A DNA stretch of 64,000 nt from Vermamoeba vermiformis (taxonomy: Eukaryota), in NCBI GenBank assembly GCA_045837725.1, contig JBEWZL010000216.1, positions 1-64,000 on the forward strand. Reading direction: 5' to 3'. The notes under the pieces were generated by a model that was not told the origin of the DNA, did not search any database, and saw nothing but the letters and a program-made list of their open reading frames with translations. The position numbers were made by a program, and so were the translations under genes. Positions 5,644 through 51,192 of the stretch are shown in pieces (position 1 is the stretch's first letter; each line of letters starts with the position of its first letter).

Positions 5644-8310
5644 CTAGAAATTGTTAGAAATAAGCTGGCACAGGTCGAACATTGTCTACAAAGAAGAAAA
5701 TATTATTATTAATGATGAAACTAGACAAGTTTTACTTACAGGCCTATCAGCAGGGTTTGCTCTCCAACACTTCTCCATTATCTCATGTAGCACAGGGTCA
5801 CAGTCTGGAGGAATTGCAGGTGAGTATGCCTCATCTCTTATCTTTGCAGCTACGTCAAGCTGGTCTTCACCAAAATGAGGCTCGTGGCCATTAACTATTT
5901 CGCTCACTGATGACCATTAGAATGTGCATTGGCTGGAGTATTTGTCACATACCAACTATTCCAAATGTCCAAACATCAGACTTAACACTGTACTTCAGAT
6001 CATGAAGACTTTCAGGAGCCATCCAGCGAATTGGTCCAATATCTGTCTCCGTCTGTCCTTGTTGTGACATATCTTTGAGCACTCTTGACATGCCAAAGTC
6101 AGAGATCTTAGGCTTGCCGATCCCGAGCTTCAAAAGAGTTAACATCGTCGGCAAAACAAATCACAGTTACCAAGATATTTCGTGCAGCCAAGTCGCGATG
6201 AACAATATTGTGACTGTGCAGGTGGAGCAGTCCAAATGCGATACCTTTCACAAGTGCTTTTTGTTCGTCAGTGTTGAGTTGTTGTTTTGACAAAATCTTG
6301 TCGAGACTACCACCGTCGCAGAACTCAAGCACAATGTAAGGGAAATCTGAGTCGAGACTCACTCCAAATGTGCGCACGACATTCGGGTGAGGTGGAAGGT
6401 CGCTGTTACTCGTCAATAAGAAACATCTATGGGCTCTGAGCTTACACAGTGAGCTTCGCTTCTTTCAAGAACACCTCTTTTTCCATTAGCTGAGTACTCA
6501 TTTTGATAGCTACCTCGGCACCCTTCCATTTGCTAGGCACAAATTAGCAAGTTGTGTTTTCCATTCGGCGCCAAACTTACCCGCGGTAGACCTTTCCAAA
6601 GCTTCCTGCGCCGATTTCTGATACGAATTTAAGCTGTTTGTAAGGAATTTGCATCTTTTCGTCGATTTCTGCGTCGCCTTTCTTCGTAGGCATGAGCGAG
6701 TAAGTTGTATCTCCATTACCCCCCTCGGGGTGCTCCTTTTTGTCGCTCTTCTTCTTATCAATCTTCTTCTTGATGACGAGGAAGTAAATTATTAAAAAGA
6801 CACCAACAGCGCCGGCTACTGACAGGCTGACACCGAGACCGATTGCAAGACTATCAACTCCCGGCGGATTAATGACGTTGCTCACGGGGTTGCTCGAAGG
6901 AGTTGACGCAGTAAGTGGAGTCGTCGTGCCTGGGCCAGAATCAGAATAGTTTCCTAGAGCCCAGAAATCAATGCTGGAGTCCGTTCCAATGATTATGTAG
7001 TCGTCAAATACTGTTGCCGATATCAAATCTCCATTGCGTGTAGACTGTTTTTTGGCCAGGACATTGAAGTTATTTGCCGGATCCAGCGCGAAGAGGTTGT
7101 AGCGATTGCTTAGTTGGTCCGCAACTACTAATATCAACGTCCCATCGTTCAACAAGACGCTGAGTGTGCGTTCATATGCGATCAATTCGAAATTGTAATT
7201 GTTACCGTAGTACGATGGAACAGGAACTTGCACTCGTGTTCCTTGATTGGTGGAGCTGACGCAGTAGAAGTCCTACATCATTGGTTATGTTTGTCTACGA
7301 TTATTCGATAGCGTACCGAGGCAATTGCATTGGTGTTATTGAGAACGACAGCCCTGCCACAGAAAAACCAGTGCGTTCTGTTGGAGACAAACGTGCTGGC
7401 GATAGTATCGGTCTGCGTCAATAGCATTGAGCAATCAAGCGGTGAAGTGCACTTGTCGACAATAACTGTCGAAGTGTCAAGCCCAAATTCGTACGAGGGA
7501 TTGAGAGTGGACTCAGGTGTCGTGATCACTCGCGCCATGTAGAACTCCGTTGCTGTTTGAAAGCATCAGCACGTATTATTCGTCTCAAAAAGGACTTACG
7601 TTGTGATTGATGCACGTAGAATTGCATGATGCCCGAGGGTACTGTGTCTAACGACGAGTCATAATAAAACGAGATCTCGGTGCCATTGACAATCCTTCGA
7701 ATCATGTCGCCCTCATAGCCGGCGAACTAATTTAACGTCAAAAATGTAGTAGAATGGTGATATATAGAGCTTACCGATTTATCCAGCATTAGAGTAATGA
7801 CCTGATTTCCAATGAAGACACTAAACGAATCCACGGGAAAAAATTTCTCCAAATTGATGTTATTCGTCATAGTAACGTTTGCGTCGAAGTCTCCTAGATA
7901 GCTGTCGAACAATTCAGTTCCAGCAAACTGGCAGGAAGAAACTCCCATAATCCAACGCAGATCGAAGATCGAGTCTTTAGCGGTGAACAGAACTTTTTCC
8001 GTCAATTCCATATCTGTCATATTCCAAGTGAAAGAATAAAAATTTGCATTGTTGGTGCTGTCGAGCATGCAACCTTTGTAGACACCAGTTAACGGATCCT
8101 TTTCAACTATTCGAATATCTCTAATATCAATAAGGCCTTTATTGAGTAGGACCTGAGGCTTCAGTGAAAGTTGCCCGAACCCTGGAATTTTAGAAGTTAG
8201 TGGTGATTTTTTATTAATTTACTTTGTTGGATGCGTTTACCTAGCGCAACGACAGACGAAGCAAACAATAAAACGATGAAGCATTTGATCAGAACTATTA
8301 CCGTTTGCAT
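5644..8310 (-). CDS. Single-pass receptor-type TKL (tyrosine kinase-like) protein kinase, multi-exon
   Basis: Signal peptide MQTVIVLIKCFIVLLFASSVVA; TM helix LAIGLGVSLSVAGAVGVFLIIYFLVI followed by a basic patch; kinase motifs IGAGSFGKV, HRDLAARN, DFG, GPIRWMAPE, SDVWTFG; GT-AG introns. Confidence 0.92.
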
Positions 8311-8401
8311 ACTTTAGATGTGGTGTCGTGTCGTGCACGAAGTACGCAAGATAAACTGCGAGATTAAAATAAATTTATTTAATTTTCCATATTTGGTAAG
8401 A

Positions 8402-11400
8402 TTACCTAACCCAACTTCTCACCAATAATATCGCATACATCATGCATGGTCTGACGAGCGTAATTAGTACTTAATTTTGCGCTCTTTATTTTTACTTACT
8501 GGTCGTTCCGCCGGATCGGTCTTCCAACACATCTCCATTAGTTCCTTTAACACAGGATCGCAATCTGCCGCAATTGTAGGAGTGTAAGACTCGTCTCTAC
8601 GTAGTTGGTGAGTGAAAGAGAACGCTAAAACTTTGTTCGTACCGGATTTTGCGGGCAACGTTGATCTGATCTTCGCCAGCATGTGGCTCGTGCCCATTGA
8701 CTACTTCACTCACTAATGCGGTGTTAATAACGACTATTATTCTTGGTCGCGATACTTGCCTACAATGCCAAACGTCCAAACGTTGGATTTCACGCTGTAC
8801 ACCGCGTCGCGAATACTCTCCGGAGCCTAAGCGCTATGTTAGTACTCGAATAGTAAGCAATGCTTAACGCACCATCCAACGAACTGGCCCAATGCGCGAT
8901 GCTGTCTGACCTTGTTGTGCACCGTCTTTGAGGACACGAGACATACCAAAGTCAGAGATCTTGGGCTTATTCTCACCGACCTGATTAACGAGATTAGAAC
9001 AGAATATACTGAAGCAGGGGGTATACTTACTAAAATGTTTCTCGCGGCCAAGTCACGATGAACAATATTGTGACTGTGCAGGTGGAGCAGTCCAAATGCG
9101 ATACCTTTCACAAGTGCTTTTTGTTCATCGGTGTTGAGTTGCTGTTTTGACAAAATCTTGTCGAGACTGCCACCGTCGCAGAACTCGAGCACAATGTAAG
9201 GGAACTCCGAGTCGAGACTCACTCCGAACGTTTGTACAACATTCGGGTGAGGAGGCAATTGCCTGTACACGTTAGCGCTATGATTGTCAAAAGTACACCA
9301 CTTACAGGGTCAGCTTAGCCTCTTTCAAAAACGATTCGGCGTCCTTGGAGGATAATCTATTGTTCATTTTGATTGCGACATTTACTCCTCGCCACTCTCT
9401 GTATTGCAGTTTAGTAAGTCGATGAAGGCTAGCGTTACGATCTTACCCGACAAAAACTTTTCCAAAACTGCCAGCGCCGATCTCCTTCGTGAACACAAGG
9501 TCTTTGTATGGAATTAGCAGCTTCTTATCGAATTGTTGCAGCGGTAAATTCTCGACTGCCTCATTGTTGTTCGGTCTGCTGTGTTTCTTGCGTCGTTTTT
9601 TGTCCAAAAGTACCGCTAATACAATTGCGCCGGCGGCTACAGCACTGCCAACAACAAGACCGACAATTAAGCCAGTTTGTTCATCGGGTGTAAGACCAGA
9701 GGGAGACTTTGTCACTGAAGCCGGTGATCCTGGTTTAATATTGAGGTCCAAATTCCACGTGTAGTAATCAATTCCTAATGTCGTCACGACAGCGATGATG
9801 TTGTCTTTGCAGTGTATGGCTCTGACACCGCCGCTTCCAACCACTTGGTTAACCAAACTGAATGAATCAGATGGGAGCAATGCTGACATCGTGTAATTCA
9901 GCCTCTCTATCGCATTCGTTGTCATAATGAACACGTCGCCAATGATGCATGCTTGCATTCCTGCAAGATCAAAGGTACTTGGCTTGAATTCTCCAGAGTA
10001 GATAGCAGTTGGAAGGGCAACGGCGCCGTTTTGTCTAACACCAACAAATGCCTGCGTAATAATTCAGAAAAGTTAATGCGATTTGGAACTTACTGTTGTT
10101 AGCGTTTGAAGGGACACGCCACATCCGTACCAATTGGTACCGTCTGTAGCAATTTTTATAAAGATTCTGTCGAGCAAGCCCACCTGCGTGCACGAAGTTA
10201 ACGAGCAGTCCTCGACCTTTGCTGTCAATGAGTCTCCAATGCTGCTCGCAATAAAGTATCTGGTCGCTGGTGAGTGTAAATAAGGCTAATTATGCACCAA
10301 CGTCAGCGGAGTGTCAAATGTGAGAAAAATAAAGTTTACTCATGTTTATGCACGTTCAATAACCAATTGAGAGAAAATCTCATTACAACAAATTCTTAAC
10401 ACAGTCTACATCTTCCCAAGTCCAGTCTTGTTTCTTTGGCCATCCAACCCACTGAATTAGTATTTTACCATCTTGTTCATGATGAATTTTGTGAACTTTG
10501 TCGCAACTTCTTATCTGTCCTTTCCATCTTTTCAACAAATTATTTGCACTTATCAACTGATTACTGGCCAACCATTCATCATGCTTGTCTTGTGAGAGTT
10601 TTTCATTGTCTGTATCTTTGAATTTTACCTTGTATTCTGTGATTCCATGTCTAATTCGAGCATCCACAATCTGCTGAACATCATACAAAGGAGGATCCCA
10701 AGTGTTCCACTTATCTTCAAAGTCAAGCTTTTGTTCTGGGTTGATATATTGCTTGCATTCTCTCATTGTCTTGATTCAGTCTTTGTTTAATGGTATCAAA
10801 CTGAATTTTGGAAGCTGCAAAATATCCAACTCCATTTCTCCTGAAGTTTTCCGTAATTTATATGGCTCACTCCACTCTCCATCACAATTTGATTTAATTC
10901 TTACACAGCCTTTATGGTCTTTTGAGAACCAAAAGTGGTACTGTTCTGAAATGGCAAAATCAGGTTTTTTGTAATGCTTCTTCAAATGTGGCTTAAAGTT
11001 TACACAAGTTTCAGCTGTGAGATCTTTTACAAGTTGTTGATGCTTAAATGCTGCACTAATGTTGTTAACTAGATCACTGATATTCCACGCATCTAACCCA
11101 ATAATGTGCTTGCCAATCATTCCAAACCAACGGTCAGGTCCAAATTTGGTATGTCCGGCAACCATAAAACTGAAATAAATGTTGTCCGCCCAGCCAAGTT
11201 CAATAGCTAAGCACAGAAATTGTAGTACATATTGGTTCTTATTTTGACCAGAACAGTTATCTGCTGCAAAGTAAAGATCTCTGTCAACCTTTCTGTCAGG
11301 GTCTGTCAAACCACTTTGTTCTAAATGGTGATATAACATAGCAATTACATGTGATGATCCTTTCTTGGTTGGGTTAACTTCTGCATCAACAAAATTCTCA

Positions 11401-14400
11401 GGGTACACATAGCCTGCAAATGAGTTTGCAGTTTCATCCACCACACCAAAGAGATAAACATTCATTCTTGACATGTAGTAGACAGCTCTAGGAGAACAGT
11501 GATATCCCCAGTATGGCAGAACAAGAGTTGTTTTGAAGTCAAAGCAAATGAGACGTATTTTGCCTGCTTTCGCCAACTCTCTTAGACATTCATGGGCTTT
11601 TCTTTCTGCCTGTGCATGAGCAATATGCCGTAGCCAGCTTGCTTCTTCTTCTTCCCATTGTTGTTTAAGCTTTTTAAAAGATTCAGATTGCTGTTGCTTT
11701 GCAGAATATGTTTTTTTGGTCTTATTCCATGCAGTGCTGGCATCAATATAGCTCTGGCAGGAGTCACACCAATTTTTGCTGAAAGCAGATGTTGCAACCT
11801 TATTCTTCCAATGCTTGTTGAAATATTTGTACCAAACAGAATAGTGAAGGGCACAAGGGCAAAATTTGGAGTGTAACTCATCAGATTTTGCAATGTCCTT
11901 GTAGAAGCCAGTTTTTAAAAAGACATTTTGGTAAGTCTGCTCTTTTTTCTTTGCAACAACATAATGTATCTTTGGCTTTTTAGCTTCGTTGTTGTGCTCC
12001 ACGGGAAGCTCTGCAGCTTTACACTTTCCTGCGTAGATGGCAACTCCATCATCTGATTTCAAACGATTGCTTTTATATCTGTAGAGATTGAGTTAGAATT
12101 GTTGCTTTCTCCTGATATGACATACATTACACAGCTCCTGATATGTTCCCAAACATAGTGTAGGTAAAGTTGATGAAATGAACCAATCTCTGGAGGACAC
12201 ACATGGGTTCTCTCATTCAACCCTCTTGAAGCAAAAGGATTTGGAAGCAGCACTGATTCAAGATGCTTGTTGAGTTCTTGTTCTTGTTGAGGGGTTACTT
12301 TCTTGACTGATTTTGCCCACTTCTCTGTCTTTTGTGGAGAAGAGTAAATTCTTTTAAACACAGAATTAAGTCGTTCACTGTGCACTCCATATAGTGCCTG
12401 CCAGCTTCTAGTGCACATGGATCTTTCTGCAGCTACTGTAAACTGACCATTTTCATCCACTTGAGCTAACGAGCGGTACATTGTATGTTCAACAAAATTA
12501 TCTCTATCATCTATTGTCATGGAAATCCAACGTTGCAGGTGTTTGGAGTAATTATGCATTAGAAGAAGAGTGCAAGGGCATTCTCTTTGACAGCATTTCA
12601 GGGTGAAACAGACCAAAGCCATTCCAAGATCAGTTCGTGCATGTCCAGTAGCAATGCAAAAATCCCAGTTGAGCAACACTAATAAATATTCTTTCTTTAG
12701 ATTGGGTAGCTTTTCTACAGAGCATAATGGCCAGTCATCAATATTTGAAAGGATCCAATTCACGTGCGATTGATAATCCCGATGATTGCCGCTATCATTG
12801 GCAATATGACTCAACACTGCCCATGCTATCAAATCATGCCAAGGGTATGCTTGGAGTTGAGTTGCCAAGTCATTGTAGTTTGTGCACAGTTTGTGGTAAA
12901 CAGCAGCTTTTGGATTTCGCTTTTCAGGTGTGCAAACTTTAACTTTAAGTAGAAGTGGAACTTCTGTTGGCATTTTGGAGTCATTTAGCTCATCACGAAA
13001 CATGGCTCTAAAGTTAAATTGCCCTTCATTCTTCAAACAGAGAAGTGCGCCGGAGTAGTACTTTCGCAAGTAATTGATATCACTTTGATTCCATGCCCAT
13101 TGTGATTTGTTGAGCGAAATGCAAGCAATTCCATGAATTAAATATACTCCACAATCATCTCCATTAAGTTGTTTTGGGTATGATGGGCTGTTAGTCATCT
13201 TCCATCTCAAGAATTTCTCAGACTTTCTTGGATGATTCACGGTTGTAAAGTACTTCTCCAAAAAGCATGCTGCAAGTGTGCAGTAGATGGAGTACTTGTA
13301 TCCTGACATGCCATCATAGTGCACTAAGGTGCGACTGCTGAAATTTGCTTCTATCATTGTCCAGTGATCATCATTATAGTGCACTGGCAAAATTATTCTT
13401 GTTCTTTGAGTCATTTTATGCCAATTTAGCCAGTCTGTTGTAATGTTTGGCATATTGCTGCTATCAATGTAGTCTAGCAAAAATATTTAGTGAACATGAT
13501 CAACAAAGTGTAATCTACATACTGCTTTCATTTCCTTCAAAGGACCGAAATTTTACTCTATATAAACTTTCTGTCTTGTATATCCAATCAAGCATTACAG
13601 TGCAGTCAATAAAGTACACTGATTCCTCAGTCACATCATTAAACAGTGATATAAAGGCATTGATAACAGTAGAATCAACCCAAGCACGAGGTTTGCAGAG
13701 AGATTTCAGAGCTCCCAGAGACATGTTGGCACTTTCAGGGACATCTGATTGTAATGTGAAGAAATGAGCAAGCTTTCGATTGGGTTGGTTGCGTTTTGTA
13801 GGCAGATCAAAATCAGTTTGCCAGGTAGAATGCTCTTCGTTTTTGCTTTCACAGCTGCAAAGAGCTGATTTTGTTTTCAAGAATCGGCACTGCTCTAGGT
13901 AGAAACAATTAGCTGCAATTTTTTACAATGCTACAGTCAGGAAAAATCCTAATTACCTTGATGTGGCTCAGAGTCTATCTCAATATCAATTAAAGTTGGC
14001 AAGTTCTTAATTTCAGCATCAAATAGCTGTGAAAGCACCAGCTCTTCATCAGTACAAGAAGATACATTGCTATAGGCATGCTGCAACCTCTTTAGAACTT
14101 GTAAATCTGGCCATCCTTGAATAGAAAAGTTGTTGTTTGTCCAGAAGGTGTGTTGAGATGCTAAATATGAAGCCATTCTTGCTTTGCTTTGAACTACCAG
14201 AGATGCCAAGTCCAGTGCATCTGACAAAGGAACAAGTGAGCGGTACTTTTCCCATAGTGCTTTGTCATCCTGCTTCATATCTTTCTTTACATATTTTGAC
14301 AATGCATTTGATGATCTGCGATGCTTGAACCAATTTTGAACTCTCTTCTCTGACCAAGTGCTGCCTAAAATTGTTGACAGTAGCTGATAGTCAACGGAAG

Positions 14401-17400
14401 TAGGCAATTTTTTTTGGATGAACACATTCTCAAGCAAGTACCATTCTTCAGGCTTGATATAGGAGTCCTTATTTGAAGTTCTAGTAGCCTAACAAACCAG
14501 TCATTATTTACAAGGAATTGTGCATTTACCTTGCCACTAATCTCCTTAAAAGATTGACCATGCTTCAAAAAGTCGGCATAGTCTGCTCTTGGATCAAAGT
14601 CCTGCACTTTGGGCACATCAATGGCAGTTTCTTGTTCGTGCAATTCTAATAACACAACAAGAATAAGCCAATGTAATACATAACAGTCATCATAATTACC
14701 ATTGAATTGTTTGCAAAGACTCACTAATTTCTCCAGTGAAGAAGACTCATTTATTATCTGCAGAGAAACTGAATAAGTAACTACATACTATAAAATATTT
14801 AATTATTCTTATTTCTTCTTTTTCTTTGTTTGATTGCTTGAGCTGCAAGTGAAGCTTTTCTCTGCTCTGTGGCCTGTCGTTTTGCTTCCCGCTCACTAGG
14901 AGTAGGACCTGCTGCACGTTTTGTGCCAGGCTTTTGGATGTTGGTTGTGCTTGCCACAGATTGCGGATTGACAATGGGCTTTGGATTTGCTTGCAATTGC
15001 TGTCCCTGGGCTGAGAATTTAAGAACATGCAACTGCTTTTTAAGTTCTTGAACTTGGCATGCTAACTCTGGCAGTTCTTTCAAGGCTTCATTAAGAACTT
15101 TGTGCATCTGTTGCTGAATCTCCACTTTTTTGCGCAATTCCCTTGATGATTTAGCGTAGCTCGAAAGAGTAGCTGAGAACTTCTTCATTTTCTACATGTA
15201 AACATTAGTAACTTTGTGAGTGTCAAAAGCATTGACGTACTTCTTCAAAAATAACAGTGTCAACTTTTGCTTGGCCTCGGATTTGCTCACGAACTTCATC
15301 TACTATCTTCTGTGCATAATCCAATGCTAATGAGTGATCAGGACTAGCTGGCTTGGTCACATGATGGCTATCAGAGATGACCGGTGATCCTGGTTCAAAT
15401 TCCAAACTTGGACTTTTTGAGCTGTCCTCCAAACCTACGTTATTGACGGGTTCATCCCATTCTCCACCCGCACCATGATTGTCAGCTGAGGATGGATTTT
15501 GGTGCTGAACATCAATATTATCATCAACCACATCAGTGTGTGCGAATCCATCATGGCTGCCATATTGGTTGATAACAGGCAACTCTTTAACAACTGTTTG
15601 ATTTGCAAGTTGTTCATTGTAAGACTGGCCTCCAACAGCATTGCATATGTATTTAATGCTTAAGCTGAATCTTTGTACTGTAGGAGGAACGTTCAACTTG
15701 ACAGCTTGTTTGTACTTTTCAATAGCGCGAGATGTCGCACGGCCTCTAATCTCAGGAATGATTGTAGATATGACAAAGCGTTCATCAAATGACTGGTTTC
15801 TGCGCAAAGAAGCCCACCAGAAATATGTCATCACGTTCGCTGTTTCCAGAGCCAGTCTTTCCTTTTCGCCATGGTGTAATGCACAACCAACATCCAAAGA
15901 TATTCGCTTAACGACAGGCCTTCAATTCAATAAGTTTACAAGTAACACACAATTACAACTTACAACACTCTGTGATAAAGCTTCTGTGTTTTGCTCTCAA
16001 GCTTCTTTCTTGCTCGCGCATTTACCTCGTCACGGTCCTTTCTCTACAAATTTTATGTTAATACAACAATACAATGCGTCTCTAGTAACAATTTGAAGCA
16101 CCATTACAGTGCAAAATGATGCCATTACAGAGCGCATCAGCACCATTGCAGTGCACATAGGCACCATTACAGTGTGTGTAAGCACCATTGCAGTGCGTCT
16201 CGGCACCATTACAGTGCGAGTAGGCACCATTGCAGTGCAAGTCAGCACCATTGCAGTGCATGTTGGCACCATTACAGTGCGTGTCGGCACCATTGCAGTG
16301 CGTGTCGGCACCATTACAGTGCGTGTCGGCACCATTGCAGTGCAAGTCAGCACCATTGCAGTGCATGTTGGCACCATTACAGTGCGTGTCGGCACCATTA
16401 CAGTGCATGTTGGCACCATTGCAGTGCATGTCGGCACCATTACAGTGCGTGTCGGCACCATTGCAGTGCATGTCGGCACCATTGCAGTGCATGTCAGCAC
16501 CATTACAGTGCATGTTGGCACCATTACAGTGCGTGTAAGCACCATTGCAGTGCAAGAGATCAAGTAAATGCATATTTATTTAAGAATAATAATCACCTTA
16601 GCATTGTTGCGAGCCTCCTCTATCAAAATTATTAGGCACTCATATAATAAACTGACAATAACTTACTTTGCCACTGTTTACCACTCTTAGAATTGTTTCT
16701 GTCCATACCCTGTACAGTGGTATTGATTAGCAACGGAGGAAAAATCGATTGTTAACCAACACTTTGCGGCGTCTCGATCTCGGAGTCCTTGACAGCCATT
16801 GCACTCCCGTTTGGAGAGCAGTTAGTTCCCGCCTAGTACTTGTCATATACCAAACAGGAGTGCAGTGGCTTGCAAGGATTCCGAGATCGAGATGCCGCAA
16901 GTTGCCCGGGCGCATACCCGGCGCACGCGAAATTGCTTGTTATTGGTATTGATTTATCTTTAAGCTATTACTTAAATAATTGATAAAATGATGTATTCAT
17001 ACTATTAACATACCTGCGGAGCAATGAAAACCTTTGAATTTGAAAAATTTGTCCTCTCGAATTTGGGATGTGAGATCTGAATAATTTTTAAATTAAATCA
17101 AATAATTATAATAATGTAATTTATATATTACTTATATTATTATTAAGGGGTCGCCTATATAATTACCCCTAATTATATTTATTTGGTTAAATGCATCCCC
17201 ACATCCAAGTGGAGTTGCCGGCAGTTCACTTACCAAATCGAAATGACTCTCCAACCAATAAAAAATAGTGTTTTATAATAAAAACGCCCCTATTGTGGTA
17301 TATATCACGTGCGTTCAAACAAAACAAGCAAAAATTAATGTTCGCAACAGATCTTGGTTCGAACACACCAAAAACCCTTTATTTTTACAAACAATACCTA

Positions 17401-18270
17401 TAACTAATATGAACGTGGGTTTATAAGGCTCCGCTGACCTTGGAGCGTAAAAAGTATTAATAGTCGCTCTAATTAAATCGTATCACGTACGCGACACTTG
17501 TACCACTTCGAACGCATTGGCTTTCGTATTTGAAAGGTCGGTACTAGTAGAAAGGTAAGAGTAGGGGCCTGGTTGAGCGGCATTAAGGCGCGAGCCGATA
17601 TAGCTTCCGTTCTAAGAAATACAAAATCAGGTTTGCGTTCAGTAAGTGACTAGAACGTACCGCTGAACGATAAAATGTGATGGTGTCGGTATCGGTTTTA
17701 ATGGCGTAAATTGGGATAAAGTTATCGAATGGTCCGCTGCCAAGTTGTGTTTGTTCTTGATCAGCTACGTAGGTGAAGAACTGCACGCCTTGTTTATTAG
17801 GCTTATTTAATAGTTAGAATATTTAATAAAATATATATATATCATTTTGCGTACTGTATCGCAAACGCCGGCCACGGCACACGAATCGAGACCTTGCATT
17901 ACCGTCGCTGAGCAGTATTCAGATCCAGTCGGAATTAAATTATTAGGAAGTGAAATATTATTAACCGACGATGAAGCAATATCGCCACTATAATCCACGC
18001 CTATTGAATACAAGGCGAATTCCGTAGTGCCTGAACGAGAATCCACTAAGCATCCGCTTAAAGAGCCTTTCGTGCCATCACCATGGAAAAAAAAAGATCT
18101 ATACACGGCTGTATCGGTATTTGGCAACGAATAAGAAGTTAAATACTGGAACGCTAGAATAATGAATTAGTATTTTTGTGATTAAAATAAATTGGTGTCT
18201 TACTGTTGGCGCCAAGAACTAGTGGGGTTAGTAAGATAATGCAACAATATGCGGAAATTATTTTTCGCAT
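8402..18270 (-). CDS. Receptor-type TKL kinase, paralog of 5644-8310; its intron at 10267-17490 contains the transposon
   Basis: Signal peptide MRKIISAYCCIILLTPLVLGA at 18270. Exons at 17491-18270 join exon 10094-10266 in phase 1 (VVQVS-P-TRYFIAS), matching the paralog's phase-1 junction (VHQSQ-P-TEFYMAR). TM GLIVGLVVGSAVAAGAIVLAVLL; kinase motifs at 8400-9500. Confidence 0.85.
10383..14757 (-). CDS. Transposon polyprotein: homeodomain - Ulp1/SENP C48 protease - Cys-rich/HTH-like region - DDD transposase - two chromodomains (premature TGA at 10776-10778; 5' start uncertain)
   Basis: Removing four GT-AG introns (14529-14489, 13956-13913, 13522-13474, 12125-12079) gives one frame of 1398 codons. 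Motifs: LLENVF...WSEKRVQNWFKHRR; AWVDSTVINAF...DHWTM...HYDG...QLNGDDCGVY; ICFDF...FAADNCSGQNKN...GHTKFGPDRWFG; YDVQQIVDAR...EYKVKFK...EW and ILIQWVGWP...WTWE. Confidence 0.85.
14799..16706 (-). CDS. Transposon accessory gene, 5 exons, 404 aa, unknown function (acidic low-complexity middle, coiled coil, basic NLS-like C-terminus)
   Basis: Exons 16706-16667, 16619-16597, 16043-15964, 15919-15241 and 15191-14799 join in frame through canonical GT-AG sites: MDRNNSKSGKQWQKEARNNAKRKDRDEVNARARKKLE...LDVGCALHH...KQRKRRNKNN*. Confidence 0.75.
16098..16553. repeat. Minisatellite of 22 x 21 bp (GCACCATTRCAGTGCRTGTYG) inside intron 2 (16596-16044) of the accessory gene
   Basis: Strict 21-bp period. The unit has an internal dyad (GCAC...GTGC). 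Many unit variants are CG->TG/CA. Confidence 0.95.
16764..16900. other. Long imperfect inverted repeat (51-bp arms, 35-nt loop) upstream of the accessory gene
   Basis: 16764-16814 ttgcggcgtctcgatctcggagtccttgacagccattgcactcccgtttgg pairs with 16850-16900 ccaaacaggagtgcagtggcttgcaaggattccgagatcgagatgccgcaa. Confidence 0.9.
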
Positions 18271-23877: not shown

Positions 23878-26615
23878 ATGACGAGCAAAGCGAAGGAGAT
23901 CGTGCTGGAAGCCTTGGGTGACGCTAAAGCAGACTTGGATGAAGTTGTTTTAGATTATATAATCGGTAAGAATTATAAAATTACATAATTATTACGATCT
24001 TGGGGTTTAAATGGAAACCGGTAACCTCGCATCACGATCAGATCTTGATCGTCAAGAAAATTTAGTAAATTCCTTTTACAAAACTAATGCAAGATTGTTT
24101 CATGATCTAATATTTATAATTTACGCAGGTATCGTGGCCGATTTTAACGAGCAAGATGAAACATTGGTTGATGTCGTTTCTCCGTATCTGGAGGGCGTCT
24201 TCGATGAATCCAAAATCAAAACATTCTGCGATGATGTTATGAATATTTTGCACGGAAAAGGAGTATGTAAACTGTATTTATTGCAAAGTTTCAACCATCT
24301 GATCACGATCAATCCAGAAAAAACAAAGGGGTCCGTCGAAACTGAAATCGGCCGTTAATATCGGTGACATTGTTAAAGACCCCGAAGAAGAACTGCGAAA
24401 GCTGCGTATTCAACAGCAATACGAAGAAATTGTTGGTCGCGAAACTTTCGTGAGTGATCGCAGTCGACTTCTTTTTATTCCTTTGATCTTAACTATTTAT
24501 TAGAGCGAATTTATTAACATCACTAAAACCGACAATAAAAAGAAGAAAAAGGGCCTGGCTCAATCATCGAACGCCCACAACACTACAGTCTTCGTCAAGA
24601 GACGCAAAGCAGGCCAAATCTCACGTCAAGGTCTATCACGTGACGTCCATTTGACCAAGATTGAGGTCTCGGCCGGCGGTAGAAAGTTGATTCAAGAGTC
24701 GGACATCAGCTTGATCTTCGGTCGAAAGTATGGTTTGGTTGGCAGAAACGGCACGGGCAAGTCCACTCTCTTGCGCGCCATTTCATCGCGTGAAATTGAA
24801 ATGCCTACACATTTGGACATTTTGCACGTCGAACAAGAAGTAAGTAGCTCCCTTGTACTAGTGAATAGGCACAGTCTCACACGTACCCAGGTTATTGGTG
24901 ACGAAACTACGGTCATTCAATCAGTCCTCATGTGCGATGTTGAACGTGAAGAACTGCTCACCGAAGAGAAGAAGTTGTTGGCTGACGCTGAAAAAGCTAC
25001 TACTGAAGAGGCCAAGAAGGAAATTGACGCCAAGTTGGCCCATATCTACGCGCAAATGGCCGAATTGGAGATTGACAAAGCTGAAGCAGCGTAAGTTCTT
25101 GAAGTTTAAATAGTACCCCGATATCAACCGCAATATTATCGTAGTGCCTCTACTATTTTGGCCGGTTTGGGCTTCAACCAAGCAATGCAAAAACAGACCA
25201 CGAAAGAATTTTCAGGAGGTTGGAGAATGAGAATTTCGTTGGCAAAGGCTTTGTTCTGCGATCCTGGTACGTGGAATATGACGTGTACAGTATATCCAGG
25301 CTAACACTTTTTTATGCAGATCTGTTACTTTTGGACGAACCTACTAACATGTTAGACGTGAAAACTGTTTTGTGGCTCGAGAACTACTTGACTAAGTGGC
25401 CTAAGACTGTAAGAACAACATTTACTTACAACTTTCACATGCTAATTCAATCTTGTAGTTGCTGGTCGTCAGTCACGATCGTGAGTTCTTGAACCATACC
25501 GCCACTGATATCATTCACTTGCAAGCTGAAGTTTTGACAACATATAAGTACGATTATTTCATACACAACGTGTTATAGGTCCTAATTGTTATACAGGGGC
25601 AATTACGATGCATTCTCCAAGGCTCGCTTGGAGAAGTTGATGACGCAACAAAAGTTACACGAGGCCCAAGAGAAACAACGCGCACACGTGCAAAAGTTCA
25701 TCGACCGATTCAGATTCAACGCTAAGCGTGCTTCACTCGTACAATCACGTCTTAAGATGTTGTCTAAGATTGAAGTCATTCCTGAGGTGGTTGAAGATCC
25801 AACCCTCGCATTCACCTTCCCTAGCACCGAGCCTCTTAAGTATGCAATACAACTATATAAGTGAACTTATAATAATGTAATAACAGGTCCCCTGTCATTC
25901 AATTCCAAGATGTTACTTTTGGCTATAATCCCAATAAGCCCTTGTTCAAGAAGCTCAACTTCAACATCAACATGGACTCGCGCGTTGCCCTCATTGGAGC
26001 TAACGGTATGGGTAAAACCACTCTGTTGAAGGTCATCACCGAAGACTTGAAGCCTACTAGCGGCTACGTAGTCAAGAGTGCTCGCCTAAGACTGGCTAAG
26101 TTCAGTCAACATCACGTCGAACAACTCGATCTGGATCTGAGCCCCGTGCAGTTCTTGCAAAGACACTACCCTGGCAAAGATCAACAACACTACCGTTCAT
26201 TCTTGGGACGCTATGGTATTCAGGCTGATTTGGCTTTGCAACGCATGGACACGTTGAGCGGAGGTCAAAAGTCGCGTGTCGTTTTTGCTTTTATGGCCAT
26301 GATGGAGCCGCACGTGATGGTACTCGACGAACCTATTAACCACTTAGATATCGAAACTGTTGATATTCTTGCTCAAGCACTTAATGACTTCGAGGGAGGG
26401 TAAGTTCGATCTGCGCATCTGATCCGAATCCAAAACAAGTTTGTTCTTCATACTAATACTATTACCACAGCCTCGTGTTAGTTAGTCACGACGAGAGAAT
26501 GATCAACATGGTGTGCGATGAGCTGTGGTTAGTAGAGAACGGTTCAGTAACCGAGTTCCCTGGTGACTTCAATGCTTACAAGGAGATGTGCATGAGAGAG
26601 TTCCAATCTTACTAA
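23878..26615 (+). CDS. ABCF3: ABC-F family ATPase (ABCF3/GCN20-like)
   Basis: N-terminal DEVVLDYI; two NBDs ([52 protein letters not shown]) with the linker [20 protein letters not shown]; no TM segments. Confidence 0.93.
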
Positions 26616-26764: not shown

Positions 26765-29207
26765 TTAAACATTATTATCATCTCCACTAGATGAAGACGA
26801 GCTTGAAGTACTATCCTTCAATCGAGTTTTCTCGTTGTCAACTAACGCAGGTTGAATATCATCGAGAGGCACGTGACCAGCCAAAATCGATTCTTTGTCG
26901 GAGCTTGAAGAGGAAGCTTTCTTTGTATTTACATCATCGAAGTCATCGGGATTGACCCAACCACCTAGATCTTCATCTCCTTGTTTGGATCTCATTTGAC
27001 GGTGGATTAATCGTGCGTAGAATCCATTTTTAGCCTATAGAATCGCATTAACGTTATGCTCTCGAACGATAGGGCATTTTAGGTTACATACGACAAGCTG
27101 ATCGTGGCTGCCGCTCTCCAACAATTGACCCTTGTTAATCACGTTGATGACATCAGCATTGCGCACAGTAGTCAGTCTGTGAGCAATAACAATCGTCGTG
27201 CGGCCAACCATCAATTTGTCGAGTGCGTCTTGCACGAGAGCTTCTGATTCTGTATCGAGAGCTGACGTGGCTTCGTCTAGCAAGAGAATCTTGGGGTTCT
27301 TAAGAATAGCTCGGGCAATAGCTACGCGTTGTTTTTGACCGCCACTGAGCTGAGCACCACGTTCTCCGACAGCACAATCATAGCCGCCTTCCAGATCCGT
27401 TGTGATGAAGTTATGAGCATTGGCCATCTTGGCTGCAGTGATGACTTCTTCGTCTGTGGCATCAATCTTGCCGTATCGAATGTTCTCGGCAATGGATCCT
27501 TCAAAGAGAATGGGTTCTTGACTGACCAAGCCAATCTGACTTCTCAACCAGCGAAGATCGAATTCTTTGACATCTACACCATCGACCATGACACTGCCTT
27601 CAATAGGGTCATAGAACCGCTCGAGCAATTGGATCACAGTGCTCTTGCCGCCACCACTAGGACCAACCAAGGCGACAGTTTGACCGGGTTTGACCTCGAG
27701 ATTCAAGCCTTTCAAAACCACAGCTTCTTTGCGGGTAGGGTAATAGAACTTGACATCGTTGAAGTTGATAACACCCTTCATGTCCTCTAGGCGACGGCCA
27801 GTACCGTCTTGAACGTCAATAAGAGTTTTTCTAAGTAATGTCGGTAAGCTACAGTCCAACAAAGTACGTCAGATCCACATTACCTGTTGATAATCTCGAA
27901 GACTCCAACGGCAGCACCTTGAGCTTTAGCAACATCAGGTGTAATCTGTGAGGCCATACCAATGCCCATAGCACCGATTACAATCGCAAAGAAGACCGTC
28001 AACATGTCACCAGGCAACATCTCGCCTGCTATGATCAATTGACCACCGTACCAAAAGCCTAACGCGTAGACACAGAACATGAACAAGAACGCGAAGCCAG
28101 CAGCGATGCCAGACATATGACTCTTCTTCACGCCGAACTTGTAGATGTCGTTCAAGATGTCATTGAATCTCTTGAGGACAGTCATTTCAGCGACGAAAGA
28201 GTACACAGTCCTGATGCCAGAGACTGTCTCTTGCACGACTTGACTCGCCTTGCCCGTGTGCTTTTGGCTGCGTTTCATACTCGCGGCGAAGAATCTAGCT
28301 TGAAGAGCTCCTGCGGCAATCATTGCGGGTGATGTCGCCAACATGACAAGTGTCATTTTCCAGCCTGAAATGAACGCGATGATCAAGCCGGCAACAACTT
28401 GGGTCAGATAGTTAAGTGCCTATATACTATCATTAATACAGAATCTAACTGAAATGACAGCAGCATCACATTTTTCCCGCGCAAAATAGATTTTTTTGTG
28501 AATCGATTTGTGCTCAATCAGAAAAGGTGCGTACTATTCCCAATTTATCGGAGACACCGTTAGAAATGGTGTCAATATCGCCGGATATTTTTGAGATCAG
28601 ATCTCCTGTTTTTGCCGAATCGAAGTAGCCGATCTCTTGTTCGAGTAATGATGAGAATACGGCTCTTCTCATTTTACGTGAAACGCGTTCGCCGTAAATG
28701 GTCCTATTCACAAAAGTATATTAATCAATTGATAGCGCGAAAACTAGTGATTTCACACAAGAAGCATACCAACATAACGTCCTCAAGTACGTAGTCAAGA
28801 ATGCACCAACTCCGAGCACTACGAACATGATTGCTAAGAAAGAGATTCTGGCAGCAAGCGCATCTCCAGTCAGGGTAAAGAGATCATTGAACAAATTGCC
28901 GAACACGAGCGAAAATAACGGAAAAACAGCACCGCTGATGATTGAAAATATGAAACCTATTATACAGAGTTCAATTAGATGCTGACATGTCACCAGATCG
29001 TCGATATAACATACCCAAAGCAACTAACCATTGCGATTTCTCATCGTAGCGAAGCAAAACGCCAAAGGGAATCATGGGCATCTTGGCCTTCTTTTTCTTG
29101 CCGCAGCATCCCTTCTTTTCAGCTTTCTTGCCTGGCTTGTCAGTCGGTAGATCGACCACAACTTCAGGTTCGGTGTCAGCTTTCTTGTTTTTCTTTGATC
29201 GCTCCAT
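26765..29207 (-). CDS. ABCB (MDR/TAP-type) half transporter, one TMD + one NBD
   Basis: TM helices with GERVSRKMR...[49 protein letters not shown]. Confidence 0.92.
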
Positions 29208-46825: not shown

Positions 46826-48897
46826 TTAATAAAGATAGCTTTTCAAGTGAGCAACAACAGCATCAATATCAGCTGTGGCGAGACCACTGATGAAACCGAT
46901 GTACCCATCTGGACGGACGAGCACCGCAAGTCCCTTCGAGTGCTCTTCAAGATGGAATGCTTTGTGGAACTCTTTGGTGTCGTCACGCCACACTTGCACT
47001 CCTTCCACGTGACTGCCACCATCAGTGATCACTTCAGTTTGCACGAGCGAGTCCAACTTGCTCTCTTTGAGCTTGGCTTGAAGTTGGTCAACACACTTAT
47101 CGTCGCCCTCATCATTGAGTACGAATATAATGTGCTTGGTAGTGTTGCGCACGATATTATGCGAAGAGCTCGAGCACGAGTCCGATACCTTTGTGACGTT
47201 GAAATGTGGGAGTCGAGCTCCTAAGAATTGAGAAGGATAGGCCGACTTGAATAGCTTGAATAGACCACGTGGCTCATTGTAATGCGATGTGAGTGATGAC
47301 TGCGGATAAGCGATGTCCATTTGACCCATATTATTTGCAAGTCTATCTTTTCCGAAGTCCTATAAGGAAGTCAGGTCCGCTTGACTCACAGTTAACAACG
47401 TACCATAATCATCGGCATGAGCATATTCCTGATTGCTTTCAATATCGCTGAGTTGGTGCCAACAACCGATCTCATAAGGCCAGTGTTTTTCAGCAGTCTT
47501 TTCGCATTGTACTCGCGCTCAGTGGCGAAGCTATTGAGAAGAACGTCTTCCTTTCCAAGACCCTGTGGAAAGTTAGACTCTACAACCTAGGACAATAATG
47601 GCTTTTCCCTACCTTCAGTACAAGGGCGAGTTTCCAAGCAAGATTGTGCGCGTCTTGAATACCCGTGTTCATGCCTTGACCACCAGCCGGACTGTGGACA
47701 TGCGCAGCATCACCGCATACAATCAGTCGTGACTTCTTCATCGACTCGACTCTTCGCTCGTTAATCTTGAAAGTAGTGATCCAACGAGGGTTGTAGAACG
47801 TAACTTTGTGGCCCTAAGCGTTGAAGTCAGCACTGTTTTGTTTAGTCAACGAGGCTTACCATTGAACTGGCTCGATCGTCAACAACCTTCTGAAGCTCTT
47901 CAAGCGAAAGTTCTTGTCCGACTTGCATATCTTGCGGTGGATTGATTACGTTAATGGCGAGACGGAATCGTCTTTCTTTCTCTTTCAACGGGAAAAAGGC
48001 CACAAATCCTTTCTCGTCGAGAACTCCCGTGATTTCGTTTCCTTTAGGGAAGTCCTGCTCTCTGATATGCACGTCCGCCGTCATCCACACATCGTTAGTA
48101 GTAATGCCTAAACAAAATCCGCATTAGTGTCCGAAAGTGTCACGTGTCAAGTTGTGACACCTCATTATCGTAATTGACGTACCTACTAACTGCACCTTCA
48201 TTGCCTTCCTGACTAGGCTGTGAGCGCCATCACATCCAACGACATAACGAGCCAATATGACCTGTTGTGAATTGTCCTTGGTGTTTCGGATTGTGGCTCG
48301 CACAAGCGGCTCCTCGCGGTCGCTGTCGCCGCCAACGGGATGCATAAACTCCGTAAGGTTAACAAGTTCCATGCTTCTGTCCACATGACGGCCATAGATG
48401 TGAGTTAGGTGGTCATTGAGGATCTGTTCTGTTTCGTCTTGCGGCAACATCAGAGCGTAAGGGTACTCGGAGCTAATGCGATCAAAAACAACGCCTCCGA
48501 TCTTCTTTGAACGAGAGCGAAATGTAGCATTATGACAGGTTACACCTTGCTTGTGGAACTGAGAAAGGTTAGGTAGGATCTCCAAAGATCTAGCGTGCAG
48601 TGCGACAGCCTTCGACAAAATCGATATTGATGGTAGCTTTTCGATTATTTTGAAGGATTTAACTCCGTGACGGGCAAGCTCATTCGCTAGGAACAGACCA
48701 ACCGGGCCAGCACCTAAATGAAAATTTAATTTTTTAATTTCGCATATTCAAAATAATTTAATAATATTTAATATAATTTGATCGTGCTTGAAATGCATAA
48801 AATACGGCGAAAAAGCATAAATAGAAAATTCAAAGATTTGTGTTCGGCTATGAATCTACTTACCAACTATTAATACATCAAGTATGTTAGATTCCAT
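46826..48897 (-). CDS. FAD-dependent monooxygenase (FAD_binding_3; PheA/TfdB-type aromatic hydroxylase family), copy A
   Basis: [76 protein letters not shown]. Confidence 0.92.
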
Positions 48898-49122
48898 TGC
48901 TTTGTGTGTGTTTTCTTTCTTGAGGTGACCGAATCACGGCAAAGTATTAAGTAGCATGCTGGCGTAATTTAGTTATTACGCGCTCCGGCCGGAATTTTCG
49001 AAATGCGCAAGCTTTGCCATGAATTATTGCTAATTCGCTTCAATCCGTACAATAGTTGTTACTACATTCGTAAAATCGAAATGAATTTATTCAGCAAGAA
49101 AAAAAAGGGAACATTCATGCGC

Positions 49123-51192
49123 TTAGAACATGTAGTTCTTCAAGTGAGCGACAACAGCATCAATATCGGCTGTGGCGAGACCACTGATGAAGCCAATGTA
49201 CCCATCTGGACGAACAAGCACTGCAAGTCCCTTCGAGTGCTCTTCAAGATGGAATGCTTTGTGGAACTCTTTGGTGTCGTCACGCCACACTTGCACTCCT
49301 TCCACGTGACTGCCACCATCAGTGATCACTTCAGTCTGCACGAGCTCGTCCAACTTGCTCTCTTTGAGCTTGGCTTGAAGTTGGTCAACGCTCTTGTGCT
49401 CACCTTCATCATCGAGAATGAACACGTGGTGCTTGGTGGTCGCTTTGACAATATCGTGCGATGACTTTGACTTGGCGTCGGCAACACTGGTCAAATGGAA
49501 ATAGGGAAGACGACCACCCAGGAATTGAGAAGGAGAGTTGTACTTGAACAACTTGAAGAAGCCTCGAGGCTCACCGTAGTGCGAGGTGAGAGGAGATTGA
49601 GGATACGAAATGTCCATCTGGCCCATGTTGTTGGACATGCTCTCTCGAACAGCGTCCTAATATGCAATGAGCACTTAGTAACTATAACGATAGGACACGT
49701 GTGCCAACTTACGATCTCCGAGACAATGGGGAGAAGAGTGTTTCTCAAAGCTTGCAATATCTTCGAGTTAGTGCTGATCAAAGTGCGCATCTTGGCGGTG
49801 TTCTTGAGCACGTTATCAGCGTTGTGCTCACGCTCGAACGAGAAACTGTCGAGCAAGACGTCCTCTTTACCGTGACCCTATAAACGTGATTAGATCCAAT
49901 CGTTTCGATACTTTTGCAATGTAATTACCTTGAGAACGAGTGCTAATTTCCAAGCAAGATTGTGCGCGTCTTGAATACCAGTGTTCATGCCTTGACCACC
50001 AGCGGGAGTGTGCACGTGCGCAGCATCACCGCAAACCATTAATCGTGATTTTCTCATGGTCTCAACGCGGCGCTCGTTCAACTTGAACAATGAGATCCAA
50101 CGAGGGTTATAGAAAGTGACATGTTGACCCTAAACTGACGTTTAGCACGTGCACAATTGGTATATCGAATCAAAACTTACCATCGCGGCTGAGCGTTCGT
50201 TTACGATATCTTGCAACTCTTGCAAGGTGTATTCCTTGTCCAAGGCAGAATTGAAGTCGTCGCCAAAGTTAATCGCAATGCGGAATCGGCGCTCTTTCTC
50301 CTTCAACGGGAAAAATGCAACGAAGCCTTTCTCGTCGATAACAGTCGTGAGCTCGTTAGGAGAAGGGAAATCTTCTTTGATCTGGCAGTCTGCGGTCAAC
50401 CATGCGTCATTGACGGTGACACCTAAACAAATAGATTTAATTAATTCAATATTTTTCACAAATTGTATACTTTGCGTGAAACATACCGACAAAATTAGCT
50501 TTCATCGTCTTTCGCACGAGACTACGAGCACCATCGCAGCCAATAACGTATCTTGCAAGAATAACTTCGTCAGAATTTGTTGCGAGATTCTTAGCTGACA
50601 CGCGGACGAGGGTTTCTTCTTTGTCATCCGCTGAGGTTCGAGTAAACTCGACCAAGCTAGTAACCTCGTAGCCACGCTCGACGCTAACGCCATGCACATC
50701 TTTCAGGTTATCCAAAAAGATCTGTTCAGTCTCATCTTGCGGCAACATCAAGGCGAATTGGTATTCGGAGTGCACTTTATCCATAGTAACGTGAGCAAGG
50801 CGCTTAGCTCCGGCGTAGATACAAGCAGCACGGCACTTGAGACCTTGAGCCAAGAACTTGTCAGCCTGAGGAACAACTTCGAGGGATCTGGCGTGGACTG
50901 CAACAGCTTTTGACAAGGTATTGATGGCTGGTAGTTTCTCGAGGATGCGGAAAGATTTAACTCCGTGACGAGCGAGCTCATTAGCCATAAACAAGCCTAC
51001 TGGGCCACCACCTAAAAAAAGTATACAGATTAGATCGGGATTTTGGTAAAGATATGCGCAATTTCTATTTTAATCAATTTATCACATACACGCTAAAGCT
51101 TAATTTAAATCGTAATAAATAGCTAGCGTTATTTAACGGTTGAGAAAGGGATACTTGCCTACGATCAGAACGTCGACTACGGGACTCTCCAT
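49123..51192 (-). CDS. FAD-dependent monooxygenase, copy B
   Basis: [63 protein letters not shown]; same intron positions as copy A. Confidence 0.92.

Follow-up and report, generated by a model that had tools for sequence, protein, structure and literature searches.

DNA transposons of the Sola superfamily (Sola1, Sola2, and Sola3; Bao et al., 2009, cited in PMC10741241 and PMC5751038) are described, in the searchable text of the citing papers, as elements of 2–9 kb whose transposase carries three catalytic aspartates (DDD) on an RNase H-like fold and leaves 4-bp target duplications (PMC10741241). The searchable text on other elements reports capture of an Ulp1 protease by the transposases of Ginger1 and Mutator (PMC2836005), and in chromoviruses (Ty3/Gypsy; Gao et al., 2008, cited in PMC6839031) it places a chromodomain C-terminal to the polynucleotidyl transferase of aspartate-aspartate-glutamate/aspartate (DDE/D) fold. 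Chromodomain-guided integration is well documented for retroelement integrases, and no example from a cut-and-paste DNA transposase was found in the searchable literature; the GingerRoot authors, in the searchable part of their report, sought a chromodomain in their DNA transposase and found none. Here we describe a gene on the minus strand of contig JBEWZL010000216.1 of Vermamoeba vermiformis, analysed within a window of 64 kb (positions 1–64,000, to which all coordinates refer). We consider it fairly probable that this gene encodes the transposase of a Sola-like DDD transposon lineage in which the enzyme has been joined to a SUMO-type protease, to a tandem chromodomain, and probably also to a homeodomain-like helix-turn-helix (HTH), and that a nonsense codon has recently crippled this copy.

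The gene resembles each of the known systems in part. As in Ginger1 and Mutator (searchable text of PMC2836005), an Ulp1-type (C48) domain with its catalytic residues kept is found in the transposase polypeptide. The transposase itself differs, being integrase-like DDE in Ginger1 and of the Mutator-like element (MULE) DDE type in Mutator; moreover the protease is C-terminal in Ginger1 and N-terminal to the transposase in the window gene, and a chromodomain is not reported in that text. As in the searchable account of chromoviruses, the chromodomain follows the catalytic fold, where by analogy it may likewise serve in tethering to heterochromatin marks. The chromovirus enzyme is a retroelement integrase with a single chromodomain, however, whereas the window gene appears to encode a cut-and-paste DNA transposase with a tandem chromodomain. 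With Sola, as far as the searchable descriptions go, it shares a DDD transposase on an RNase H-like fold, and its relatives in the DUF7869 family share the 4-bp duplications and inverted ends (17–50 nt); the size range of Sola is compatible with the 2.1–5.5 kb of these relatives and with a candidate span of 7.2 kb here. Unlike the window gene, Sola, which was compared by description only, has no C48, chromodomain, or homeodomain in the descriptions found in the searchable literature (Repbase, Dfam, and the supplements of papers lay outside the search).

Structure of the gene and of the encoded protein

Six stop-to-stop open reading frames (ORFs) lie head to tail on the minus strand between 14787 and 10383 (Table 1). 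With four in-frame GT-AG introns (41–49 nt) taken out by coordinate, the exons form a frame of 4194 nt (1398 codons), whose only stops are codon 1267 (TGA, 10778–10776), ahead of which 1266 codons are open, and the terminal TAA (10385–10383). Sequences resembling the branch sites CTAAC or CTGAC are visible by eye in several of the four introns. The splice at intron 4 is supported by the alignment to intron-less homologues, which passes the junction without a gap. Introns of this size seem normal in this genome, as an ABC-transporter gene of the host in the same window needs an intron of 35 or 53 nt. The Pfam families recognised in the model are, in order, Homeodomain, Peptidase_C48, DUF7869, and Chromo, the last just under its cut-off. 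Scans of the window with Rfam and for tRNA genes gave no matches.

Evidence for a fusion comes from proteins in which the same parts occur in a continuous chain. A word-indexed search of 5.8 billion proteins with the core returned three longer relatives among 1829 candidates. In two of the close relatives, P0001 (968 aa) and P0002 (1012 aa), colinearity with the model starts within the C48 domain and extends to the final residue; each contains, in a single uninterrupted chain, the C-terminal part of C48 with its Gln and Cys, the middle region, the core, and a pair of chromodomains. The order is the same in P0003, with C48 recognised at E 0.003 and the C-terminus cut, and the core is followed by two chromodomains in P0004 (76% identity), P0005 (68%), and P0006 (69%). 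Overall the close homologues are 50–76% identical and colinear along their length. Local searches of the gene blocks against 151 fetched proteins found the C48 part in P0001–P0003, the middle region in the same three and in P0007, and the chromodomain region in P0001, P0002, P0004, P0005, and P0006 (E ≤ 7e-51) and in P0007 (E 1.7e-6). When C48 together with the middle region was used as query against longer proteins only P0001 was matched. Judged by these sequences, C48, transposase, and chromodomains form a genuine single protein in this lineage.

The core belongs to the family DUF7869 (PF25273), which is matched at 82.9 bits against a cut-off of 26 (E 2.8e-23) and is present in all 68 long relatives surveyed (representatives of at least 560 aa, i.e., 67 of the 150 best and P0002). 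The three aspartates D185, D278 (ADNCxGQNKN), and D320 (GHTKxxxD) are each at least 90% conserved among 150 aligned family members. In an AlphaFold model of the core (predicted local distance difference test, pLDDT, 83.6) D185 ends strand 1, D278 ends strand 4, and D320 starts the next helix, which is the canonical RNase H-like arrangement. In agreement with this, an exhaustive VIA-align search ranked Mos1 best (Z 9.8, root-mean-square deviation 3.7, 166 residues aligned), followed by the integrase of SIV (Z 9.6), Metnase (Z 9.5), the integrase of PFV (Z 9.5), and IstA (Z 9.0), and its first 21 rows were transposases or integrases throughout. Foldseek gave no row at E ≤ 0.001 with the core, transposases and integrases filling most of the rows listed, and the family profile matched no sequence in the PDB. 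The core is thus predicted from the model to fold as an RNase H-like DDD transposase.

Between protease and core lies a middle region without any Pfam family. It is matched by phmmer in P0001–P0003 at E 1.8e-68 to 3.9e-60 and in P0007 at E 1.6e-8, and it closes with the motif LPxxxTxxxxYxxY, common to the whole superfamily (in the consensus, and by eye in P0007 and P0008). From its conservation it may be read as the ordinary N-terminal part of the transposase proper. Atlas scores for this region (0.79–0.81) were uninformative; for the core Atlas returned DUF7869 clusters, in one of which 11% of the members carried PF07592, a family found at E ≤ 1e-3 in none of the 68 long relatives.

The protease part matches Peptidase_C48 (PF02902) at 58.3 bits against a cut-off of 20.7 (E 1.3e-15), covering only profile positions 79–206 of 217. 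It can be aligned to SENP5 (E 1.7e-9) and SENP1 (E 1.4e-7), and the pairs DHW/HW, YDG/YDS, KQ/QQ, and DDCG/DCG correspond to the catalytic His, the Asp, the oxyanion Gln, and the Cys. As the SENP alignment begins at residue 77–105 of the SENP catalytic domains, the N-terminal sub-domain of C48 presumably lies in exon 3, across intron 3. Exon 3 alone gave no significant Pfam or PDB match; its motif WVD..VINAF resembles the Ulp1 N-terminal motif.

The tandem chromodomain was compared with its relatives. The homologous region of P0002 scores 39.5 bits with Chromo, and the identity of the region is 38–57% to P0001, P0002, and P0004–P0006, and 19% to P0007. By phmmer it matches only chromodomain proteins (Polycomb, CDY, HP1; E 0.055–0.64). 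With the predicted model as query the top rows of Foldseek were mostly chromodomains (Chp1, LHP1, MPP8, HP1) at a probability of 0.97–0.99, with a best E of 0.023.

Accessory domains are rare in the family. At E ≤ 1e-3 all 68 long representatives contain DUF7869, one contains a Homeodomain (P0008), one contains Chromo (P0002), and none contains C48; likewise blocks other than the core were matched in none of 80 metagenome loci. A HMMER scan of 1.84 billion representatives gave a family of 2240 at E ≤ 1e-3, 511 at E ≤ 1e-10, and 5 at E ≤ 1e-30, and scans of prokaryote genomes and viral contigs found no relatives. No mention of DUF7869 was found in the full-text literature, where a search for the GQNKN motif gave nothing relevant. 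In a FastTree phylogeny of the core (148 rows, after removal of P0006 and one other of the 150 because they filled fewer than 150 of the 256 columns) the window gene, P0004, P0005, P0001, and P0003 form a clade (support 0.992) with P0007 as sister (0.885). The chromodomain bearers are thus united in one clade that includes no member lacking the domain, and the tree points to a single acquisition of the chromodomains.

An original prediction, made from the letters of the window alone, had described a chain of six ORFs and four introns of 41–49 nt (1398 codons, one TGA) encoding a C48 protease with intact His, Asp, and Cys, a DDD transposase core, two chromodomains, and a homeodomain. The chain was confirmed at its coordinates, the catalytic residues of the protease, including the Gln, align to those of SENP5 and SENP1, and the core does group with transposases, with a conserved triad and a model fold that matches Mos1, Metnase, IstA, and integrases. 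One frame does hold all four modules, and C48, core, and chromodomains are joined in continuous homologues; the homeodomain did not receive this support, its block being without counterpart in the 151 proteins. That the combination is unusual is borne out by the survey of long representatives, but the proposal of a lone architecture or a new superfamily was not upheld, as the gene falls into a sub-lineage of at least seven known proteins within the family of 2240 representatives.

Mobility of the family and a possible mechanism

Evidence for mobility comes from distant members of the family. A metagenome scan gave 80 loci, all distant, with 24–36% identity to the window core. Among these L037 and L040 are copies of 3.5 kb that are 99.7% identical within unrelated flanks; they have inverted ends of 33 bp starting GTGACC and are bordered by 4-bp duplications (AATT for L037, AAAT for L040). 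Inverted ends of at least 17 nt surround the transposase match in 42 of the 80 loci, and in 18 of the 42 a terminus beginning with G and flanking A/T 4-mers could be read, the other 24 being unscored as low-complexity, at contig ends, or ambiguous. The 4-bp duplication is exact in 11 of the 18 (L037, L040, L033, L049, L052, L072, L012, L080, L078, L025, and L056), has one mismatch in six (L055, L067, L068, L071, L018, and L059), and two mismatches in one (L010). Eight of the 11 exact duplications are the palindromes ATAT or AATT, which are indistinguishable from an extension of the inverted repeat, so that L040, L052, and L012 provide the non-palindromic cases; in addition, the loci L037/L040, L052/L055, and L071/L072 each copy one element. 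The contigs named WLWD01... of one metagenome assembly carry several different DUF7869 elements (L033 at 8248–11540 and 12906–15984, L049 at 7619–15501) with GTGACAG termini beside ATAT, one of them inside a TA microsatellite, and this assembly looks like a eukaryotic genome rich in DUF7869 transposons. As a DDD transposase with 4-bp duplications in its relatives, the DUF7869 family fits the published definition of the Sola superfamily, as given in the searchable text (PMC10741241), and the Sola-like character assigned to the core at the outset is in keeping with this. Membership in the Sola1 subgroup, for which the original prediction named DNCxGQNKN/GHxxxxxD as signature, would be a candidate assignment based on that motif, which is itself present and conserved.

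A mechanism may be outlined from these parts. The lineage would be a small and distinct branch of DUF7869, a large eukaryotic family of cut-and-paste transposases of the DDD type. Its base would be a complete transposase, with an N-terminal region, a CxxC..H motif, the RNase H-like DDD core, and a C-terminal region, which has presumably gained an upstream C48 protease with an intact catalytic set and a downstream tandem chromodomain, the putative homeodomain-like HTH being placed further upstream in this copy. The HTH and the N-terminal region may bind the element ends, and the DDD core would cut and paste, leaving a 4-bp A/T-rich target duplication. By holding the enzyme on methylated histone tails the chromodomains could bias where it inserts, as in chromovirus integrases, and the protease might act on silencing or repair factors, stripping them of SUMO or a comparable modifier. 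The suggested roles of the added domains are modelled on chromoviruses and on the Ulp1-bearing Ginger1 and Mutator elements; together they would make the enzyme what the original prediction called a chromatin-targeting, anti-silencing machine.

More speculatively, and with more doubt than belief on our part, this would be the first cut-and-paste DDD (Sola-like) lineage to be equipped with a SUMO-type protease and to read histone methylation via a tandem chromodomain of its own, held under strong purifying selection as an active heterochromatin-seeking DNA transposon or as a host-recruited chromatin regulator. If true, an HTH, a deSUMOylase, and a histone reader in one transposase would be a compact natural case of chromatin-targeted DNA insertion, and a test case for the repeated capture of Ulp1 proteases by transposons; the strong purifying selection (see below) makes the proteins worth expressing. 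If it is merely another domain-accreting transposon family, the value would lie mainly in annotation, DUF7869 being a DDD transposase with 4-bp target duplications.

Points against this reading and competing explanations

The copy at hand appears damaged: the TGA at 10776–10778 (minus strand) aligns to an Arg conserved in P0001, P0002, P0004, and P0006, it precedes the chromodomains and cuts them off, and the gene model is without an ATG. Several observations weigh against a transposon lineage with all of these modules. First, some modules are weakly recognised or lack counterparts. Chromo (PF00385) matches in two stretches at E 4.3e-5, with 23.8 bits below the cut-off of 25.1, and the chromodomain model, which shows strand-strand-strand-helix twice, has a pLDDT of 63.6, i.e., low confidence. 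Neither the N-terminal block of C48 nor the homeodomain block has a counterpart in any of the 151 family proteins by local search, and for the latter none was found at E ≤ 0.01 among 791 candidates from the longer proteins of the 5.8-billion set. Second, signs of mobility are few at this locus. No convincing inverted ends or target duplication were found around this copy; the best candidate pair (Table 1) exceeds the best of 13–15 matches obtained in 20 shuffles but has unlike flanks (AATT and AAAA) and an E of 0.47 by blastn-short. The 64-kb window holds one copy, and three clusters at 90% identity have 1–2 members each, each on one contig. Third, a comparison with a second organism (organism B), given below, covers 969 of the 4194 coding bases with 29 of 35 differences located (the other six were not counted), and a ratio of non-synonymous to synonymous change (pN/pS) of 0.06 fits a host gene as well as an active transposon lineage.

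The context of the TGA, LIPLNKD*IKTMRECKQ, corresponds to LIPLSKERIKTMRDCKQ in P0006, and as homologues have Arg at the same position inside this conserved stretch, the alignment identifies the TGA as a nonsense change, neither part of an intron nor a recoded codon. A 42-nt intron (10801–10760) that would remove the TGA was rejected, its 14 codons being conserved in P0001, P0004, P0005, and P0006; reading of TGA as a sense codon is without support, given the Arg of the homologues. This copy is therefore probably crippled, with an Arg codon changed to TGA just ahead of the chromodomains and no visible start codon. The further claim that the element is self-contained is not supported by this copy, given its nonsense codon, the missing start codon, and the failure to demonstrate inverted ends or a target duplication.

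The weak candidate ends would delimit a span of 7157 bp that takes in the upstream ORFs, which is suggestive and no more. Another inverted repeat considered at first (I2, 31 nt, 77%) was rejected as it is by estimate not above chance for a search of 10 kb. Two repeats lie within the candidate span. The 21-bp tandem array (Table 1) gives rise to long but spurious ORFs on both strands, in several frames. At 16764–16900 there is a hairpin-like inverted repeat of 137 bp, with arms of 51 nt (88% complementary) and a loop of 35 nt, whose G+C content is above that of its A/T-rich surroundings; it could be a small miniature inverted-repeat transposable element (MITE) or a sub-terminal part of the element.

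The extent of the gene at its 5' end affects the homeodomain. Homeodomain (PF00046) scores 24.9 bits, narrowly above its cut-off of 22.9 (E 1.8e-5, profile positions 7–53 of 57), and helix 3 reads WFKHRR, with a His where the invariant Asn51 is expected (consensus WFxNRR), hence the term homeodomain-like. Only two canonical in-frame introns and the missing intergenic space argue for the linkage of this block to the remainder of the gene. It is conceivable, though in our view unlikely, that the homeodomain exons, possibly with the ORFs at 15921–14799, make up a gene of their own further upstream, so that the fusion would comprise only C48, transposase, and chromodomains. The missing relatives of the block in both protein sets would agree with this, but homologues on record all start inside C48, and their upstream parts are thus not on record. 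Similarly, exon 1 has no ATG and follows the TAA-ended ORF pair by 41 nt, whereas both of the first two introns (41 and 44 nt) are canonical and keep the frame, and the 26 nt from the end of the homeodomain ORF to the start of the next are too little for a terminator and a promoter. It also speaks for the linkage that the family recruits homeodomains, as seen in P0008 (651 aa). Like the window gene this distant DUF7869 transposase (32% identity in the core) has a homeodomain in the same chain; unlike the window gene it has it at the C-terminus, in canonical form (WF.N.R; Pfam E 1.7e-12), and has neither C48 nor chromodomain. The homeodomain of P0008 looks like an independent acquisition, and the family would accordingly have recruited homeodomains at least twice, at opposite ends.

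As the model is without ATG and begins at an acceptor, its 5' end is open. The upstream ORF pair matches no Pfam family and has no relative among the 80 metagenome loci; it could be a second ORF of the element or its cut-off 5' part, and it can be linked in frame to exon 1 only via introns of 116 or 128 nt from a donor at 14896.

The selective history of the core can be followed by comparison with organism B; in its contigs (run X3) 969 bases of the core are represented, with an identity of about 97%. The 29 located differences comprise 23 synonymous and 6 non-synonymous changes (pN/pS about 0.06), and 22 of the 29 fall on the third base of a codon (P = 3e-6 against an expectation of one third). 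On this evidence the core has been under strong purifying selection along almost the whole path between the two copies, which excludes a long-dead relic and fits an active transposon lineage or a host gene equally. One 107-nt contig of the same run (record 2) matches 10416–10495 on the plus strand and 10594–10618 on the minus strand, which hints at a rearrangement, or an assembly chimera, in the chromodomain region of organism B.

The main rival to a transposon lineage is that the gene is a domesticated, transposase-derived host gene, i.e., a chromatin factor with DDD core, SUMO-type protease, and chromodomains that is inherited vertically at a fixed locus; we place this on the improbable side, while taking it seriously. 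The purifying selection between the two copies would be expected of such a gene, and the neighbouring kinase gene is also present in organism B at a similar identity (3 differences in 155 nt), but the contigs of organism B, which are only 107–611 nt long, are too short for synteny. The lack of significant inverted ends or a target duplication, the single copy in the window with clusters of 1–2 members, and introns that resemble those of the host in size and style would fit as well. On the other hand, the premature TGA at a conserved Arg removes the chromodomains and no start codon is seen, several divergent, paralogue-like relatives exist at 50–76% identity, the transposase retains both its catalytic DDD and its entire N-terminal region, and distant members of the family are demonstrably mobile. 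A domesticated gene would suggest that this organism group has a chromatin pathway not yet known, and would be a new example of the domestication of a whole multi-domain transposase outside animals and plants.

Neutral decay of a relic, or a row of ORFs that arose by chance and has no coding function, is a very improbable explanation of the locus. The internal stop and the missing start codon would be in line with decay, but such a relic would hardly retain 1266 open codons ahead of the TGA and four Pfam families in the expected order, nor colinear homologues at 50–76% identity, and the excess of third-position differences in organism B argues against it. From three RNA runs labelled as the same species 4, 4, and 8 reads were obtained, each lying only in part on a short conserved kinase stretch near 9034–9071; these come from other kinase genes, as the match is short and then runs into unlike sequence. 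No reads fall on the transposase gene, but the neighbouring kinase gene is equally uncovered and the runs are without weight. This neighbouring gene (8839–10063, minus strand) has by eye the kinase catalytic motif HRDLAARNIL and a probable membrane-spanning stretch. A transposase gene of a Sola-like lineage, crippled in this copy, remains the reading preferred here.

Further features of the window

Table 1. Positions of the features assigned to the transposase locus and its surroundings.
Feature	Position	Strand	Remarks
Stop-to-stop ORFs of the gene	14787-14365, 14488-13949, 13922-13515, 13486-12059, 12092-10776, 10775-10383	minus	
Exon 1	14530..14757	minus	open, without ATG, starts at acceptor
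Candidate further intron within exon 1	14699-14646	minus	in-frame, 54 nt, by eye
Intron 1	14489..14529	minus	41 nt, GTAAAT..TTAG
Exon 2	13957..14488	minus	contains homeodomain-like HTH
Homeodomain-like HTH	~14458-14312	minus	PF00046, residues 11-59 of block
Intron 2	13913..13956	minus	44 nt, GTAATT..GCAG
Exon 3	13523..13912	minus	presumed N-terminal half of C48 domain (..RAWVDSTVINAFISLF..)
Intron 3	13474..13522	minus	49 nt, GTATGT..CTAG; interrupts C48 domain
C48 catalytic part	13052..13417	minus	PF02902; with His, Asp, Gln, Cys
Middle region	12126..13051	minus	no Pfam family; conserved in P0001-P0003, C-terminal end in P0007
Intron 4	12079..12125	minus	47 nt, GTATGT..ACAG
Predicted RNase H-like DDD catalytic core	11031..11645	minus	Pfam, conservation, AlphaFold model, structure search
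Catalytic Asp codons	D185 11540-11538; D278 11261-11259; D320 11135-11133	minus	D278 in ADNCSGQNKN; D320 in GHTKFGPD
Chromodomain 1	10521..10685	minus	Pfam, phmmer, predicted model, Foldseek, homologues
Chromodomain 2 (..ILIQWVGWPKKQDWTWED..)	10395..10496	minus	Pfam, predicted model, Foldseek, homologues
Two upstream ORFs	15921-15241 and 15191-14799 (span 14799..15921)	minus	49-nt intron between, ACTAAT branch site
Weak candidate left inverted end	10292..10311		pairs with 17429-17448, 17/20 bases
Weak candidate right inverted end	17429..17448		candidate span 10292-17448 = 7157 bp
Tandem array	16140..16554		19.8 copies of 21-bp unit, 86% matches; inside candidate span

Elsewhere in the window the ABC-transporter gene is found at 26768–28419 on the minus strand (ABC_membrane E 1.3e-38, ABC_tran E 1.2e-34), and a second ABC_tran fragment at 24504–25094 on the plus strand. 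Tandemly duplicated genes resembling flavin adenine dinucleotide (FAD)-binding monooxygenases occupy 46826–51069 and 62540–63163 on the minus strand. Their ORFs at 48124–48747 and 50446–51069 are 56% identical, the first matching PF01494 at E 1.1e-28, and monooxygenase-like ORFs of equal length occur again at 46826/49123 and 62540. The first 2000 positions are unlike the rest of the window, with a G+C content of 54% and a strong skew of G over C (0.31). Several short tandem repeats with periods of 16–38 are found at 369–500, and a 177-bp repeat in 1.9 copies at 1193–1524.

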